Shown: positions 12,176-35,385 of the stretch, piece by piece
How the letters are laid out: each line of letters begins with the position of its first letter
How positions within the stretch are numbered: the first letter of the stretch is position 1
From: a virus
Lineage: Duplodnaviria > Heunggongvirae > Uroviricota > Caudoviricetes
DNA length: 64,000 nt
IMG/VR virus record: IMGVR_UViG_3300029641_000003
Direction: 5' to 3' (one strand)
Position numbers and translations under genes: made by a program
The notes under the pieces: model-generated
The model's database searches: none
What the model was told of the DNA's origin: nothing
The model's input: only the letters and a program-made list of their open reading frames with translations

Positions 12176-12189
12176 TGTTAGAAAATTAA
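12176..12189. promoter_or_regulatory. operator-like motif (C1-type by analogy)
   Basis: TGTTAGAAAATTAA, one member of a motif family recurring at promoters in this window. Confidence 0.5.
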
Positions 12190-12190
12190 T

Positions 12191-13219
12191 TTATGAATCC
12201 ATCAGGCGACTATTTGCACCAACGGATGCCCCGCTACGGCGCAAATATCGCATAAGTGTTTCGGGCTTTTTCCATGTGCCTTCCTGCATGATCTCGACCA
12301 TTGACACCTGTTTCTCAGCCATATCAATTGCCGCACCAACACGCGCACTATGGCCTGTCCACGTCCGGTATCTTCCTTTGTTCGGCGTGGCATCTCGTTT
12401 GTTCAGCAACCCCCAGGCATCGCTGAATATTTTCTCCATTGCAGGTGCAGTAAGGGGCGTTGTCGTGATTCTGGCCTTATTACTGCGGTGTATTGGCGGG
12501 AATAGCACCGCGTCCGGATGTTCTCGAAGTCCGGACACCTCCAGCCAGTCGTTCAGTACGGCGGTAGTGTAACGAGAAAGCACCTTATCAAGTCCGGCGG
12601 CGGTCGTGATGGTCTTCGTGTGTGAAATATGCAGCGTTACAGTGTCACCTGTTTGGTCCAGATCTCCGACGCGGATGCGCGAGATTTCTGACATACGCAT
12701 CAGGGTATTGTATGCCACGAAGAGAAACGCCCGATTGCGCAGGTCCACCAGCCGCTCGGAACGGGACAGCAACACGTCGAGCAATTTCAGATCATCCCAC
12801 CGCAACGGTATAGCCTGGCCTGTTCGCTCGCCTTTTTCCGTTGCCGCTTCGCGCCGGATGCGCCGCATGGCCAGAGACACACTTTTATCGTCCGACAGCG
12901 GCGGGAGGCCACATTGCGAAAGCAGCATGTTAAGCATGGCATAGTGCTTATCAATGGTGGTCGAAGCCAGATCGGCCTCATGCAACTGGAGAAGATACTC
13001 GCGGGCCATTTCCGGCGTAATCGGGAACCAGGGGCGCTGGCGCGAGTTACACCACCGCGCCCAGGAATGAAACACCAGACGGAGATCACGAAGTGTATTT
13101 GGGGCATAAGCTCCCTGGTCGTTCATGAACTGCATAAAGTTTTTTGCAGCTTCCTGGTATTCGGTGCCAATATCGCGCAGAAAACCACCAGAACCGCCGG
13201 AGATAACTAGTTCACCCAT
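12191..13219 (-). CDS. cre: Cre-like tyrosine recombinase
   Basis: 342 aa; alignable to recalled P1 Cre throughout (WFP, AYNTLMRMSEISRIRV, GHSARVGAA, terminal Y in MRYLRR). Confidence 0.9.
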   Translation of the reverse strand: MGELVISGGSGGFLRDIGTEYQEAAKNFMQFMNDQGAYAPNTLRDLRLVFHSWARWCNSRQRPWFPITPEMAREYLLQLHEADLASTTIDKHYAMLNMLLSQCGLPPLSDDKSVSLAMRRIRREAATEKGERTGQAIPLRWDDLKLLDVLLSRSERLVDLRNRAFLFVAYNTLMRMSEISRIRVGDLDQTGDTVTLHISHTKTITTAAGLDKVLSRYTTAVLNDWLEVSGLREHPDAVLFPPIHRSNKARITTTPLTAPAMEKIFSDAWGLLNKRDATPNKGRYRTWTGHSARVGAAIDMAEKQVSMVEIMQEGTWKKPETLMRYLRRSGASVGANSRLMDS

Positions 13220-13370
13220 GAAACTATTAAACCTCTATATACAGATAACGCTACGTGAAAAATAGAAAACTGACAGGGTAGTTATAAGTTAATTTTCAAA
13301 ATTCAAGCCTTTGATTCGAGGCATGATTTTTCATCCTTGTCAATACTGCCTGTTTACTGGTGATTATAGC

Positions 13371-13404
13371 CTAACTTTAAATAATGCCAATTATTTAAAG
13401 TTAG
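13371..13404. other. lox-type site: 13-bp inverted arms around 8-bp spacer
   Basis: CTAACTTTAAATA-ATGCCAAT-TATTTAAAGTTAG; arms are perfect reverse complements; about 150 bp upstream of cre. Confidence 0.85.
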
Positions 13405-13487
13405 AAATCGGGGCTTTTTTCCCAAAAAAAACACCGACCAGATCACTTCGCAAATCCGTCAGCCATGCGGTAGCCGCTCCTGGTTAC

Positions 13488-13498
13488 ATTTTCTAATA
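13488..13498. promoter_or_regulatory. operator-like motif upstream of ORF 13538
   Basis: ATTTTCTAATA, variant of the recurring TTTTCTAACA motif. Confidence 0.4.
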
Positions 13499-13537
13499 GG
13501 AACAATCAAAAAAAAGCGGTTTTATCCTTTACTCACC

Positions 13538-32908: not shown

Positions 32909-33600
32909 CCGATTACCTGGAATTGCCCCATCCTTGGGTGATACCAGCGTTTTCCTCGGTGTTCAGCCTCCGACATCATCAGGGTAAAGGCATTCATGAA
33001 GGGAGATAAGGCCACAATAGTACGACGCGACAATACCCCCTCTGGCGTCAAAAACTCATGCGTATCTGTGGGGATCCGGTAAGCGTTGACCAGGTTACGG
33101 CATTTGGCTTCAGTCAGGCCGCATTTCGCCGCCAGTTGGCGGTAGCCAATGTAGCCTTCTGGTATGTTGCCTTTCTTGATCTGCTCGACGGTTTCAGCGA
33201 CCTGGCTAACCTTTGACTCAACAGCATGAAGCCGCTTTTGCTGCTGAACTGCATTCGCAGCCATTGCAGCGATCATCTCTATTTCGGTCAACGGCTGGCG
33301 TACTTGTTCTTCCAGTTCGCGCCAGCGGTCCACCAGCCGGGCGGTGAATTCGGGAGAGAGCTGCGCAACGACAATAATGCTGTCTCGTTTGCCTTGCTCG
33401 CCTTCGAAGACGTAAGCCTCAACGCCACGACGCAATCCTAAGTTATTGATTTTTTCGAAAACAGCCATTGGCGGTTTTCGGATAATGCTTCGAGCAACCA
33501 TACGCTCAATACTACGTTTAACGTCAGAGTGTTGACTTCCCACCAGCTCCGCAATCTCAATGCTGGTCATTGATAGTTTTTCGAGAATGCAGATATCCAT
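32893..33600 (-). CDS. Rha-family regulatory protein / antirepressor-like
   Basis: 235 aa; N-terminal MTSIEIAELVG... typical of Rha proteins. Confidence 0.65.
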   Translation of the reverse strand: MDICILEKLSMTSIEIAELVGSQHSDVKRSIERMVARSIIRKPPMAVFEKINNLGLRRGVEAYVFEGEQGKRDSIIVVAQLSPEFTARLVDRWRELEEQVRQPLTEIEMIAAMAANAVQQQKRLHAVESKVSQVAETVEQIKKGNIPEGYIGYRQLAAKCGLTEAKCRNLVNAYRIPTDTHEFLTPEGVLSRRTIVALSPFMNAFTLMMSEAEHRGKRWYHPRMGQFQVIGWGGE

Positions 33601-33824
33601 CAGTGAGCCTCCGCAATGCCGGGATTGGTAATATTGCGATACCAGGGATTAGTGTTTGGTTGTGGGGAAGTAGAGAAACGACCAGTGAGAACGCCATACT
33701 GATCAGGGATCAGAGAACGGGCTTCTTTTTCAGTTGCGGCAATTGCGAAGTGATCACAATGTTTTTGCAGGGAGTGGAAACGCCAGATGAATTCTGGGCG
33801 TGAGCAATGATTGGCATTAACCAT
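33600..33824 (-). CDS. small protein upstream of Rha-like gene (Icd-like position)
   Basis: 74-aa ORF translationally coupled to the Rha-like gene; follows a 330-nt leader behind an operator pair. Confidence 0.35.
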   Translation of the reverse strand: MVNANHCSRPEFIWRFHSLQKHCDHFAIAATEKEARSLIPDQYGVLTGRFSTSPQPNTNPWYRNITNPGIAEAH

Positions 33825-34152
33825 AGTTACGGCCTCGTAAGTTGATAAACAACCTGCGACCCGCTGTCAAACAGGTGGCAGGACGTGACAGGGTTGACAG
33901 ACTGGCACTTACGAAACCAGCAGGCCGAAGCCTCCCCATCACGCCCCACCATAATTCGGGCGTAACGTGGTTTTACGGACACAAAAATACCGCAATATCG
34001 GAAATGTGCGGTTGTCCGCGTAAGTATTCAGGCTGTCAAACCTGGTCGCAGAATTTGCTACGACGGCATGAATATAAGCCTGAACATTAGAAAGATCAAC
34101 AGAATTTTTATCAAATGCTGTTTTTTAGTGACAATGTAAATCATACATTCTT

Positions 34153-34183
34153 GATTAGAAACATCAATTTAATTTTCTAACAT
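34153..34183. promoter_or_regulatory. palindromic operator pair
   Basis: GATTAGAAACATCAATTTAATTTTCTAACAT. Confidence 0.6.
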
Positions 34184-34239
34184 AGATTTTCGAGCGATGA
34201 AATTCCCGCCGCACGGTTATTGTACAGTCAATCGCAACA

Positions 34240-35199
34240 TCATCCCCGAAAGCCCTCCGGAATTGACCAGTCTTCCCGGTCAAATTCAGACCGATAGCCA
34301 CGCTGTATCATCAGGTCAAATGCTTCATTGATGGTTGCACATCCCTGGGAACCAGAATAATCCATAGAGAAATCCAGGGCGCTGGATCGTTTGGGCTTAT
34401 TCACTGTGGTAGCACTACGTAACCATGCAAATTTTTTTGCCAGTTTTTCAGCGGTACGATACAGAGCCTGCCGTTTTGCGTACCCCTCGTCTGAACGACG
34501 CTTTGCAGCTCTCGCTTTTGCTGCCGCCAGGCAGTGGTTGGTATGTTCTTCCCTGATTACTGTTTTTTTATCCAGCAAGCCATTATCCGCTTGAGAACTA
34601 TCTGCTGGTGAAGCCTTTGGCTGAACCGCGCATGATCTTTCTCTTCTTTTGGCTATAGAGTGACTCTTATTTTCTATTGGCTGTTCATTTTGAACATGGG
34701 GGGGCTTGTTCAATTTGAACAGGGGGTTCCCAGTTTCAAAAAAATAACGAACCTTTGAAATCAACTGCTTAACCAGTTTTGTGGCGTTGGCAAATTTGAT
34801 GCCCTGCTTACTCCCTATCTCCATTGCTACATGAATGAAGTGGAGAAATTGTGTTGTAAACCGGTACACGTTACACACCTGAGCATTGTTATTCGCTACC
34901 TGATGCTGCTTAACAAGCATTCCGCACTTCGTCGCTTCGGCAAATGCCCGGCGCACAGTAGAAATACTGCGTCCTGTAATCTCGGACATATCCGCATATG
35001 AGCGACGGATCATGTATTCATCGGTAGCTCCTGCCAGGTTGGCGAACTCGGCAATAATGGCGCTATGTGAAGGGGAAAGAAAACCGCTATGACGAGCAAA
35101 AAAACTCAACTGATGACCTTTGATTTTTTTGTGGTATTCAGTGTTGTTTTTATACTCAGAAGTGTTGAAAGTAACTGAAACTGAATTTAAAATACTCAC
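34240..35199 (-). CDS. HTH protein, possibly RepL-like lytic replication initiator
   Basis: 319 aa; helix-turn-helix EMSEITGRSISTVRRAFAEATKCGMLV; operator-like motif upstream at 35371..35385. Confidence 0.4.
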   Translation of the reverse strand: MSILNSVSVTFNTSEYKNNTEYHKKIKGHQLSFFARHSGFLSPSHSAIIAEFANLAGATDEYMIRRSYADMSEITGRSISTVRRAFAEATKCGMLVKQHQVANNNAQVCNVYRFTTQFLHFIHVAMEIGSKQGIKFANATKLVKQLISKVRYFFETGNPLFKLNKPPHVQNEQPIENKSHSIAKRRERSCAVQPKASPADSSQADNGLLDKKTVIREEHTNHCLAAAKARAAKRRSDEGYAKRQALYRTAEKLAKKFAWLRSATTVNKPKRSSALDFSMDYSGSQGCATINEAFDLMIQRGYRSEFDREDWSIPEGFRG

Positions 35200-35370
35200 C
35201 AGATAGTTCCGTGAAAAATCTATCTACCGTATAAATCTATGCCAGTGGATTTATACACCCAAAAGCCGCTACTCAGCGGCTTTTGCTTTTTTTGGCAGTC
35301 GCTACCGGAGCAGTGACCGCGATCCTACTCGATCACGTGCCGTCGGATCAACAGTGTATAAAAACACACT

Positions 35371-35385
35371 GTGTTAGAAAATTAA
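35371..35385. promoter_or_regulatory. operator-like motif
   Basis: GTGTTAGAAAATTAA. Confidence 0.5.

Follow-up and report, generated by a model that had tools for sequence, protein, structure and literature searches.

Dispersed asymmetric sites in a D6-like phage-plasmid as probable operators of a C1-type repressor

What reads a short asymmetric motif that recurs between the genes of a phage related to Escherichia phage D6? The motif was noticed in a 64,000-nucleotide stretch (the window) of IMG/VR record IMGVR_UViG_3300029641_000003, a virus assigned to Caudoviricetes. Dispersed operators of the C1 repressor are textbook knowledge for phage P1, and an earlier note on this DNA, made from the sequence letters, had taken the motif for a counterpart of them that defines an immunity regulon. 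We find that the motif is very probably the operator of the master repressor, a C1-type protein, in a D6-like phage-plasmid of the P1 family. Positions 12000-24500 are 83% identical in DNA to D6 (MF356679), and the window is a relative of this P1-family plasmid prophage, in a sub-lineage that is ~83-84% identical to D6. To the same region, a few E. coli and E. marmotae plasmids of ~90-94 kb are 98-99% identical. Window genes were named by synteny with the D6 annotation.

The 14-mer TTAATTTTCTAACA has four exact copies in the window (starting at 12176 and 35372 on the minus strand and at 21969 and 34169 on the plus strand), whereas 0.01 would be expected from dinucleotide-preserving shuffles (n=100). 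With up to two mismatches allowed, 11 sites were found against 0.62 expected, a number that none of the 100 shuffles reached; the seven inexact sites start at 13573(-), 18015(-), 18031(+), 21819(+), 21953(-), 23214(+) and 24269(+). When scored with a 19-column weight matrix, positions fell into two groups, with the 11 sites at 21-27.5 and the next-best position in the 64 kb at 13.3. The sites are therefore not random. Nine of the 11 are located entirely outside open reading frames (ORFs), on a mechanical and deliberately generous ORF map that counts 90.9% of the window as coding, and the remaining two are within stretches that this map adds to the 5' ends of c1 and the VRR-NUC gene, ahead of where these genes really start. 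Thus, the recurrence claimed in the earlier note (at least ten copies) was borne out, and so was the placement, all 11 sites being between genes or at gene 5' ends. Together with two weak sites, the window contains 11 strong and two weak sites at eight loci. Across the window, D6 and the 98%-identical relative NZ_CP085065, 35 sites yielded the consensus AnwTTArTTTTCTAACAYA, which is asymmetric and ~19 bp long; AATTAGTTTTCTAACATAT is an example of a single site. Most of the positions listed in the note were correct to within a few bases (its 21824, 24271, 21952 and 35371 are the sites starting at 21819, 24269, 21953 and 35372). However, its 13488 is only a weak variant, and the strong site before c1 (13573-13586) had been missed. 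Its 34153 is a degenerate half-site, TGATGTTTCTAATC, with five mismatches, located at exactly the canonical -16 offset from 34169.

The note had also described palindromic pairs, and 18015/18031 and 21953/21969 are indeed true inverted pairs (TGTTAGAAAAACAATTTTAATTTTCTAACA is an example of a 30-bp pair). In the same three genomes, the minus-strand site always comes first and the plus-strand site follows exactly 16 bp on, such that the 5' (TTAA) ends face each other across a 2-bp gap. The Obanab pair of P1 has the opposite arrangement: it is convergent with overlapping 3' ends, whereas D6-type pairs are divergent. Pairs are also commoner in the D6 type than in P1, with five in the complete 98% relative.

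Conservation of the sites was examined in relatives at several distances. D6 has ~18 sites, 16 of 18 being intergenic by the depositors' annotation, and NZ_CP085065 has ~21 at ~14 loci. In three-way alignments of homologous intergenic regions from the window, D6 and Enterobacter pJBIWA008_2, the motif is a conserved island in diverged surrounding DNA. D6 and the window share the intergenic places of the motif, the late-promoter motif described below, the rox site and gene order, and their C1 proteins are 81% identical; at lpa and the tRNA operon, where the pairs of the window are complete, some partner half-sites in D6 are degenerate. The 12176 site is kept in D6 (89948) and has a variant form in Enterobacter, the weak 13485 site has equally placed and oriented counterparts in D6 (112) and Enterobacter, and the 21819 site lies within a block, TTTTCTAACAyTTwAATTTGT, that is conserved in both. 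In the Enterobacter element, whose C1 shares just 40% identity, TTTTCTAAC nevertheless ranks first among over-represented 9-mers once Chi is set aside. Salmonella pK91 (NZ_CP029965), a conjugative resistance plasmid with only a D6-like remnant and therefore informative solely for the c1-upstream and cre-downstream sites, has a C1 of 67% identity and TTAATTTTCTAACA ahead of c1. Beyond the window, D6 and the 98% relative have further sites at hrdC-dmt, ref and mat, the P1 equivalents of which are Odmt, Oref and Omat.

The P1 repressor acts at 22 dispersed asymmetric 17-bp operators and represses repL and lpa among others (PMC8546580). P1 record AF234172 annotates experimentally defined C1 operators and late promoters; the operator set comprises Oref, Omat, Ossb, Oc4, OrepL, Odmt, Obanab, O26, Oppp, OpmgRa/b, OpmgT, Olpa and Oc1/coi, with the consensus ATTGCTCTAATAAATTT. 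Seven of the eight window loci are at genes whose P1 homologues carry an annotated C1 operator (Table 1), so the proposed parallel with P1 extends to position. The eighth, downstream of the recombinase gene, precedes an operon that ends in isaA and recalls Ossb, upstream of P1 ssb-isaA, which is a possible counterpart. The P1 and D6 types are also alike in having dispersed, asymmetric sites of 17-19 bp at promoters of homologous genes, in single and inverted-pair forms, homologous repressors encoded beside the lox/rox-recombinase locus, and an immI module of c4 RNA, icd and antirepressor. The antirepressor is Rha-type in the D6 type, unlike in P1.

That the motif differs from the P1 consensus, as the note had stated, is correct insofar as no P1-type operator was found in the window at up to three mismatches to ATTGCTCTAATAAATTT, and no D6-type site in the P1 genome (best score 15). 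The two are not unrelated, however: in the same orientation 10 of 17 positions agree, around a shared TCTAA, the key changes from P1 to the D6 type being G4C5 to TT, T11 to C and A13 to Y. Alignment in reverse orientation, with only ~6 matches, is misleading and was discarded. In a census of NN-TCTAA-NN, TT-TCTAA-CA was the commonest form in the window, D6 and the 98% relative (11, 12 and 16 copies), whereas P1 has GC-TCTAA-TA (10 copies) and Enterobacter TT-TCTAA-CA or -CG. In Leclercia and Pantoea, with a C1 of ~30% identity, AT-TCTAA-GG precedes c1 in both; Pantoea also has it before lpa, and Leclercia after cre. This is what one would expect to see in homologous but heteroimmune repressor-operator pairs, and the system is accordingly taken as a heteroimmune relative and not as one of P1/P7 specificity.

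The candidate repressor had been proposed as ORF 13538..14638. Its product is indeed remotely homologous to P1 C1, but the gene itself is shorter, 13601..14638, and encodes 345 residues. It is 81% identical to D6 C1 and 21-22% to P1 C1 (tblastn, E 3e-5), and a profile of ten homologues aligned with P1 C1 by hhalign at a probability of 96.4% (E 1.1e-9, 227 columns, residues 8-240 against 9-245). The C1 homologues carry PF27008; the window protein itself had no match in a Pfam version that lacks this family or among sequences of the Protein Data Bank (PDB). Its gene is syntenic with P1 c1, beside rox/cre and convergent with pacB. D6-type C1 has ~100 additional C-terminal residues, predicted to form two long helices, that have no counterpart in P1 C1.

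Taken together, the immI parts that adjoin one site, the P1 operator positions, the shared TCTAA and the homology of C1 point to a C1 operator, and the kinship of the window with D6, the match to P1 positions, the C1 homology, the conservation of the sites and the absence of P1-type operators all support the reading of the earlier note. We infer that C1 is the protein that binds these sites and that its binding represses. Sigma-70-like hexamers overlap sites at three loci (pmgS, the tRNA operon and c4), and at the VRR-NUC gene the predicted operator is ~20-35 nt downstream of such a promoter. Several observations weigh against this interpretation. Shuffled sequence yields at least as many promoter-like matches (15.8 expected, 13 observed), so the overlaps are only consistent with repression by occlusion and do not count as evidence of it. 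The best -35 hexamer at lpa is 20 bp downstream of the operator pair, and no promoter was recognized at repL or at the cre-downstream site. The P1 corepressor Lxc (Bof) and the inactivator Coi gave nothing significant by tblastn against the window, although such very short proteins may have diverged beyond detection; an ORF of 86 residues in the position of lxc showed no similarity by BLASTP. Finally, the core of the motif is constant while C1 falls to 40% identity and other phage proteins diverge in parallel, which makes its covariation with C1 coarse.

This constancy over C1 variants of 100% to 40% identity would also suit a different regulator, either a second phage DNA-binding protein (several other helix-turn-helix proteins are encoded by D6-like genomes) or a host factor. 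We regard such a regulator as unlikely, since the sites coincide with experimentally defined C1 operator positions of P1 and share TCTAA with the P1 operator, one of them stands directly before c1, and the flanks switch in Leclercia and Pantoea, where C1 is ~30% identical. That the motif is a product of AT-rich composition, or a functionless relic repeat, is hardly credible. Both the motif and the intergenic DNA are AT-rich, but the shuffles gave only the 0.01 and 0.62 copies mentioned above, the scores leave a gap from 13 to 20, the islands are conserved in 83%-identical and far more distant genomes, and the pair offset is invariant at 16 bp.

It was also considered that the motif might be the upstream (-22) box of late promoters that depend on Lpa, with a following TAT as the -10 element. 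TATTAT, TATTTT or TAGATT follows several of the sites, and P1 late promoters consist of a 9-bp box, 4 nt and a -10 element. In that orientation, however, the sites at 21969 and 23214 would point into the 3' end of a gene or the antisense strand, the sites precede early and immunity genes (lpa included), and their orientations are mixed. Moreover, the late promoters have a motif of their own: AAT[CA]ACA[ACT][AT]CT-N3-TAnnnT is located, correctly oriented, upstream of seven late genes and at the homologous D6 positions. On the grounds of orientation, target genes and this separate motif the late-promoter explanation was rejected, and we consider it very improbable. The second motif, in the form AATCACAnACT-N3-TAnnnT, is likely the D6-type Lpa-dependent late promoter. 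It differs from the P1 form, AAGTGACTT-N4-TAnnnT, and neither in the window nor in D6 are late operons marked by the P1 box AAGTGACTT. P1 late promoters resemble the operator motif in being a dispersed short motif ahead of operons in the same phage family; late promoters are unlike it in sequence, gene set, strict orientation and fixed distance to the -10 element.

If the sites are C1 operators, the regulon could work as follows. In the prophage, C1 would bind single sites and inverted pairs of fixed geometry that overlap or adjoin promoters of its own gene, lpa, repL, the c4-icd-antirepressor operon, the tRNA operon, pmgS, the VRR-NUC gene and the cre-downstream operon, and would thereby block initiation or early elongation of transcription. 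The site 14 nt ahead of its start codon presumably serves autoregulation of c1. Upon loss of C1 activity, for example through the Rha-type antirepressor (a presumed inactivator that would be held in check by the C4 antisense RNA), lpa and repL would be released, and Lpa would then activate the separate set of late promoters. Control of the Tad2-like (DUF2829), VRR-NUC and neighboring accessory genes, which the note had placed under the repressor, would follow only from their operon position.

How might such a protein recognize asymmetric sites? An AlphaFold2 model of C1 (pLDDT 81.7, pTM 0.50) was compared with solved structures by Foldseek, and only E. coli Tus-Ter complexes matched (E 6e-8 to 2e-6, probability 1.00, ~305 aligned columns); the TM-scores of this one predicted model were low, 0.33-0.40. 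A fold search of BFVD with the model gave nothing significant. Tus is the E. coli replication terminator protein, which acts on Ter sites as a monomer on an asymmetric site, and P1 C1 has long been known as a monomer on an asymmetric operator. The resemblance would therefore fit the asymmetry of the sites. On the other hand, Tus-Ter arrests forks, whereas C1 would repress transcription, and there is no sequence similarity: hhalign of C1 against E. coli Tus gave a probability of 0.2%, the weak Pfam matches of C1 included none to the Tus/terminator family (TACC_C and DUF4041 are unrelated), its profile found no PDB sequences, and full-text searches found no link between C1 and Tus in the collection of papers covered. 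We tentatively propose, at odds that we would put a little short of even, that C1 repressors of the P1/D6 family may be Tus-fold monomeric clamps on a ~19-bp asymmetric site with a TCTAA core, that a few flanking bases may set specificity, and that the C-terminal helical hairpin of the D6 branch may couple two monomers on divergent pairs offset by 16 bp.

Table 1. Predicted operators, promoter-like sequences and genes of the window
Feature	Position	Strand	Match or basis	P1 counterpart and remarks
Predicted single operator between recombinase gene stop and leftward operon	12176..12189	-	exact	
Weak second operator-like site upstream of c1, TACATTTTCTAATA	13485..13498	+	3 mismatches	Op99 series (c1)
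Predicted operator 14 nt ahead of c1 start codon	13573..13586	-	1 mismatch	Op99 series (c1); identical in D6 (199) and pK91 remnant
Predicted divalent operator upstream of lpa	18015..18044	18015-18028(-), 18031-18044(+)		Olpa
Predicted single operator, leader of leftward tRNA operon	21819..21832	+	2 mismatches	
Predicted divalent operator ahead of tRNA genes	21953..21982	21953-21966(-), 21969-21982(+)		divalent Obanab (tRNA-tci-ban)
Predicted operator over -10 of pmgS promoter	23214..23227	+		OpmgRa/b; identical in D6 (10318)
Predicted operator at 5' end of VRR-NUC (pmgM-like) gene	24269..24282	+		O26/Oppp, flanking pmgL-pmgM
Predicted operator with degenerate partner at c4-icd-antirepressor promoter	34153..34182	34169-34182(+), 34153-34166(-)		Oc4
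Predicted operator upstream of repL	35372..35385	-	exact	OrepL; kept in D6 (22467) and Enterobacter
pmgS promoter-like sequence	23251..23224		TTGAAA-16-TATGTT	TGTT of -10 hexamer is operator end
tRNA operon promoter-like sequence	22007..21979	leftward	TTGAAA-17-TATGTT	under divalent operator
c4-icd-antirepressor promoter-like sequence	34167..34140		TTGATG-16-TATGAT	
VRR-NUC promoter-like sequence	24335..24308		TTGATA-16-TATTAT	
Late motif, darB	32086	-		
Late motif, CHAP-domain (putative peptidoglycan hydrolase) gene	32124	+		
Late motif, prt	38138	-		
Late motif, ddrB	40508	-		
Late motif, lydA	44298	-		
Late motif, R	48937	-		
Late motif, pmgB	56450	-		
Leftward operon below recombinase gene	11774..12118, 11289..11777, then dUTPase, Tad2-like/DUF2829, isaA-like	-	Pfam on operon genes	
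Cre/Dre-type recombinase gene	12191..13219	-	D6 synteny	
c1, candidate repressor	13601..14638	+	D6 synteny; profile homology to P1 C1	
pacB, pacA, lpa	14676..17937	-	D6 synteny	
lpa	17545..17937	-	PF25716, E 4e-50	
Four tRNA genes	19455-20639	-		
pmgS	21985..23193	-		
VRR-NUC (pmgM-like) gene	23826..24272	-		
Rha-type antirepressor gene	32893..33600			
icd	33600..33824			
C4 antisense RNA	33871-33956	-	Rfam RF01695, 69.6 bits	upstream of icd and antirepressor gene
a1b1 target element of C4 RNA	34025-34077	-	Rfam RF03163, 55.2 bits	
repL	34240..35199	-		

In addition to the genes in Table 1, the window contains darB and the head, lysis and tail operons by synteny with D6. A Tad2-like domain (PF11195, formerly DUF2829; Thoeris anti-defence 2-like) is present in two proteins. 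One gene, 10121-10783(-), belongs to the operon behind the 12176 site; the other, 18425-19000(-), is upstream of lpa, has no operator of its own and would be reached only from the tRNA-operon promoter. Segment 8263-9337, with ORF 8221..9327 (368 residues, no Pfam hit), is absent from NZ_CP085065 and is therefore cargo specific to the lineage, sited where the cre-downstream operon ends; genes of phd/doc-like (Fic/DOC) and HumD-like (S24 peptidase) type lie upstream. Between the 12176 site and the first gene of this operon there is a hairpin, GTACCCTC...GAGGGTAC (12120-12155), that is conserved and also found in D6 and Enterobacter; it could be the terminator of the recombinase gene or a 5' leader structure.

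Other repeats were also observed. A 34-bp inverted repeat, CTAACTTTAAATAATGCCAATTATTTAAAGTTAG, is located at ~13371-13404 between the recombinase gene and c1, the interval in which the D6 record annotates a rox site (the lox equivalent); its right arm accounts for a spurious GTTAGAAA match at 13400. Another inverted repeat, CAGTGTGTTTTTATACACTG (35340-35371), directly adjoins the repL site and is kept in D6 and largely in the Enterobacter relative. The ~1.3 kb between the divalent site and the tRNA genes (20640-21950) is without a convincing ORF, no gene is annotated in the homologous D6 gap, and the additional 21819 site falls inside it; in P1, the corresponding leader includes a dicF-like region. 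The Chi sequence GCTGGTGG occurs 38 times in the window against 1.5 expected (largest shuffle 5), with 26 copies on the minus and 12 on the plus strand. Thirty-one of the 38 fall in the window half that surrounds the pac/terminase genes, most densely at 4318-33547, and the Enterobacter relative is likewise Chi-rich.

Most likely the system is a textbook one in diverged form and does not represent a novel type of element. No record that we examined, the D6 GenBank record included, annotates the D6-type consensus, the pair geometry or the TCTAA-flank pattern, and full-text literature searches for the motif string and for D6 operators gave nothing relevant. The D6 genome paper (Gilcrease and Casjens 2018), which was outside that search, may already describe the sites. 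The Tus-like model of C1, if it holds, is the more interesting result: it would provide a structural basis for the behavior of P1 C1 as a monomer on an asymmetric operator and would tie a phage master repressor to a bacterial replication-fork trap protein. For engineering, the operators could provide parts of a repressor-operator pair that is orthogonal to P1 C1. Phage-plasmids of the D6 type are commonly found in E. coli, Shigella and Salmonella (153 plasmid records matched the C1 gene alone), and their accessory genes include the two Tad2-like anti-defence candidates, toxin-antitoxin pairs and restriction systems. Among these genes, the operator consensus would tell those kept silent in the prophage from those that fire on induction, and the TCTAA flanks may allow immunity groups of P1-like elements to be predicted from sequence alone.

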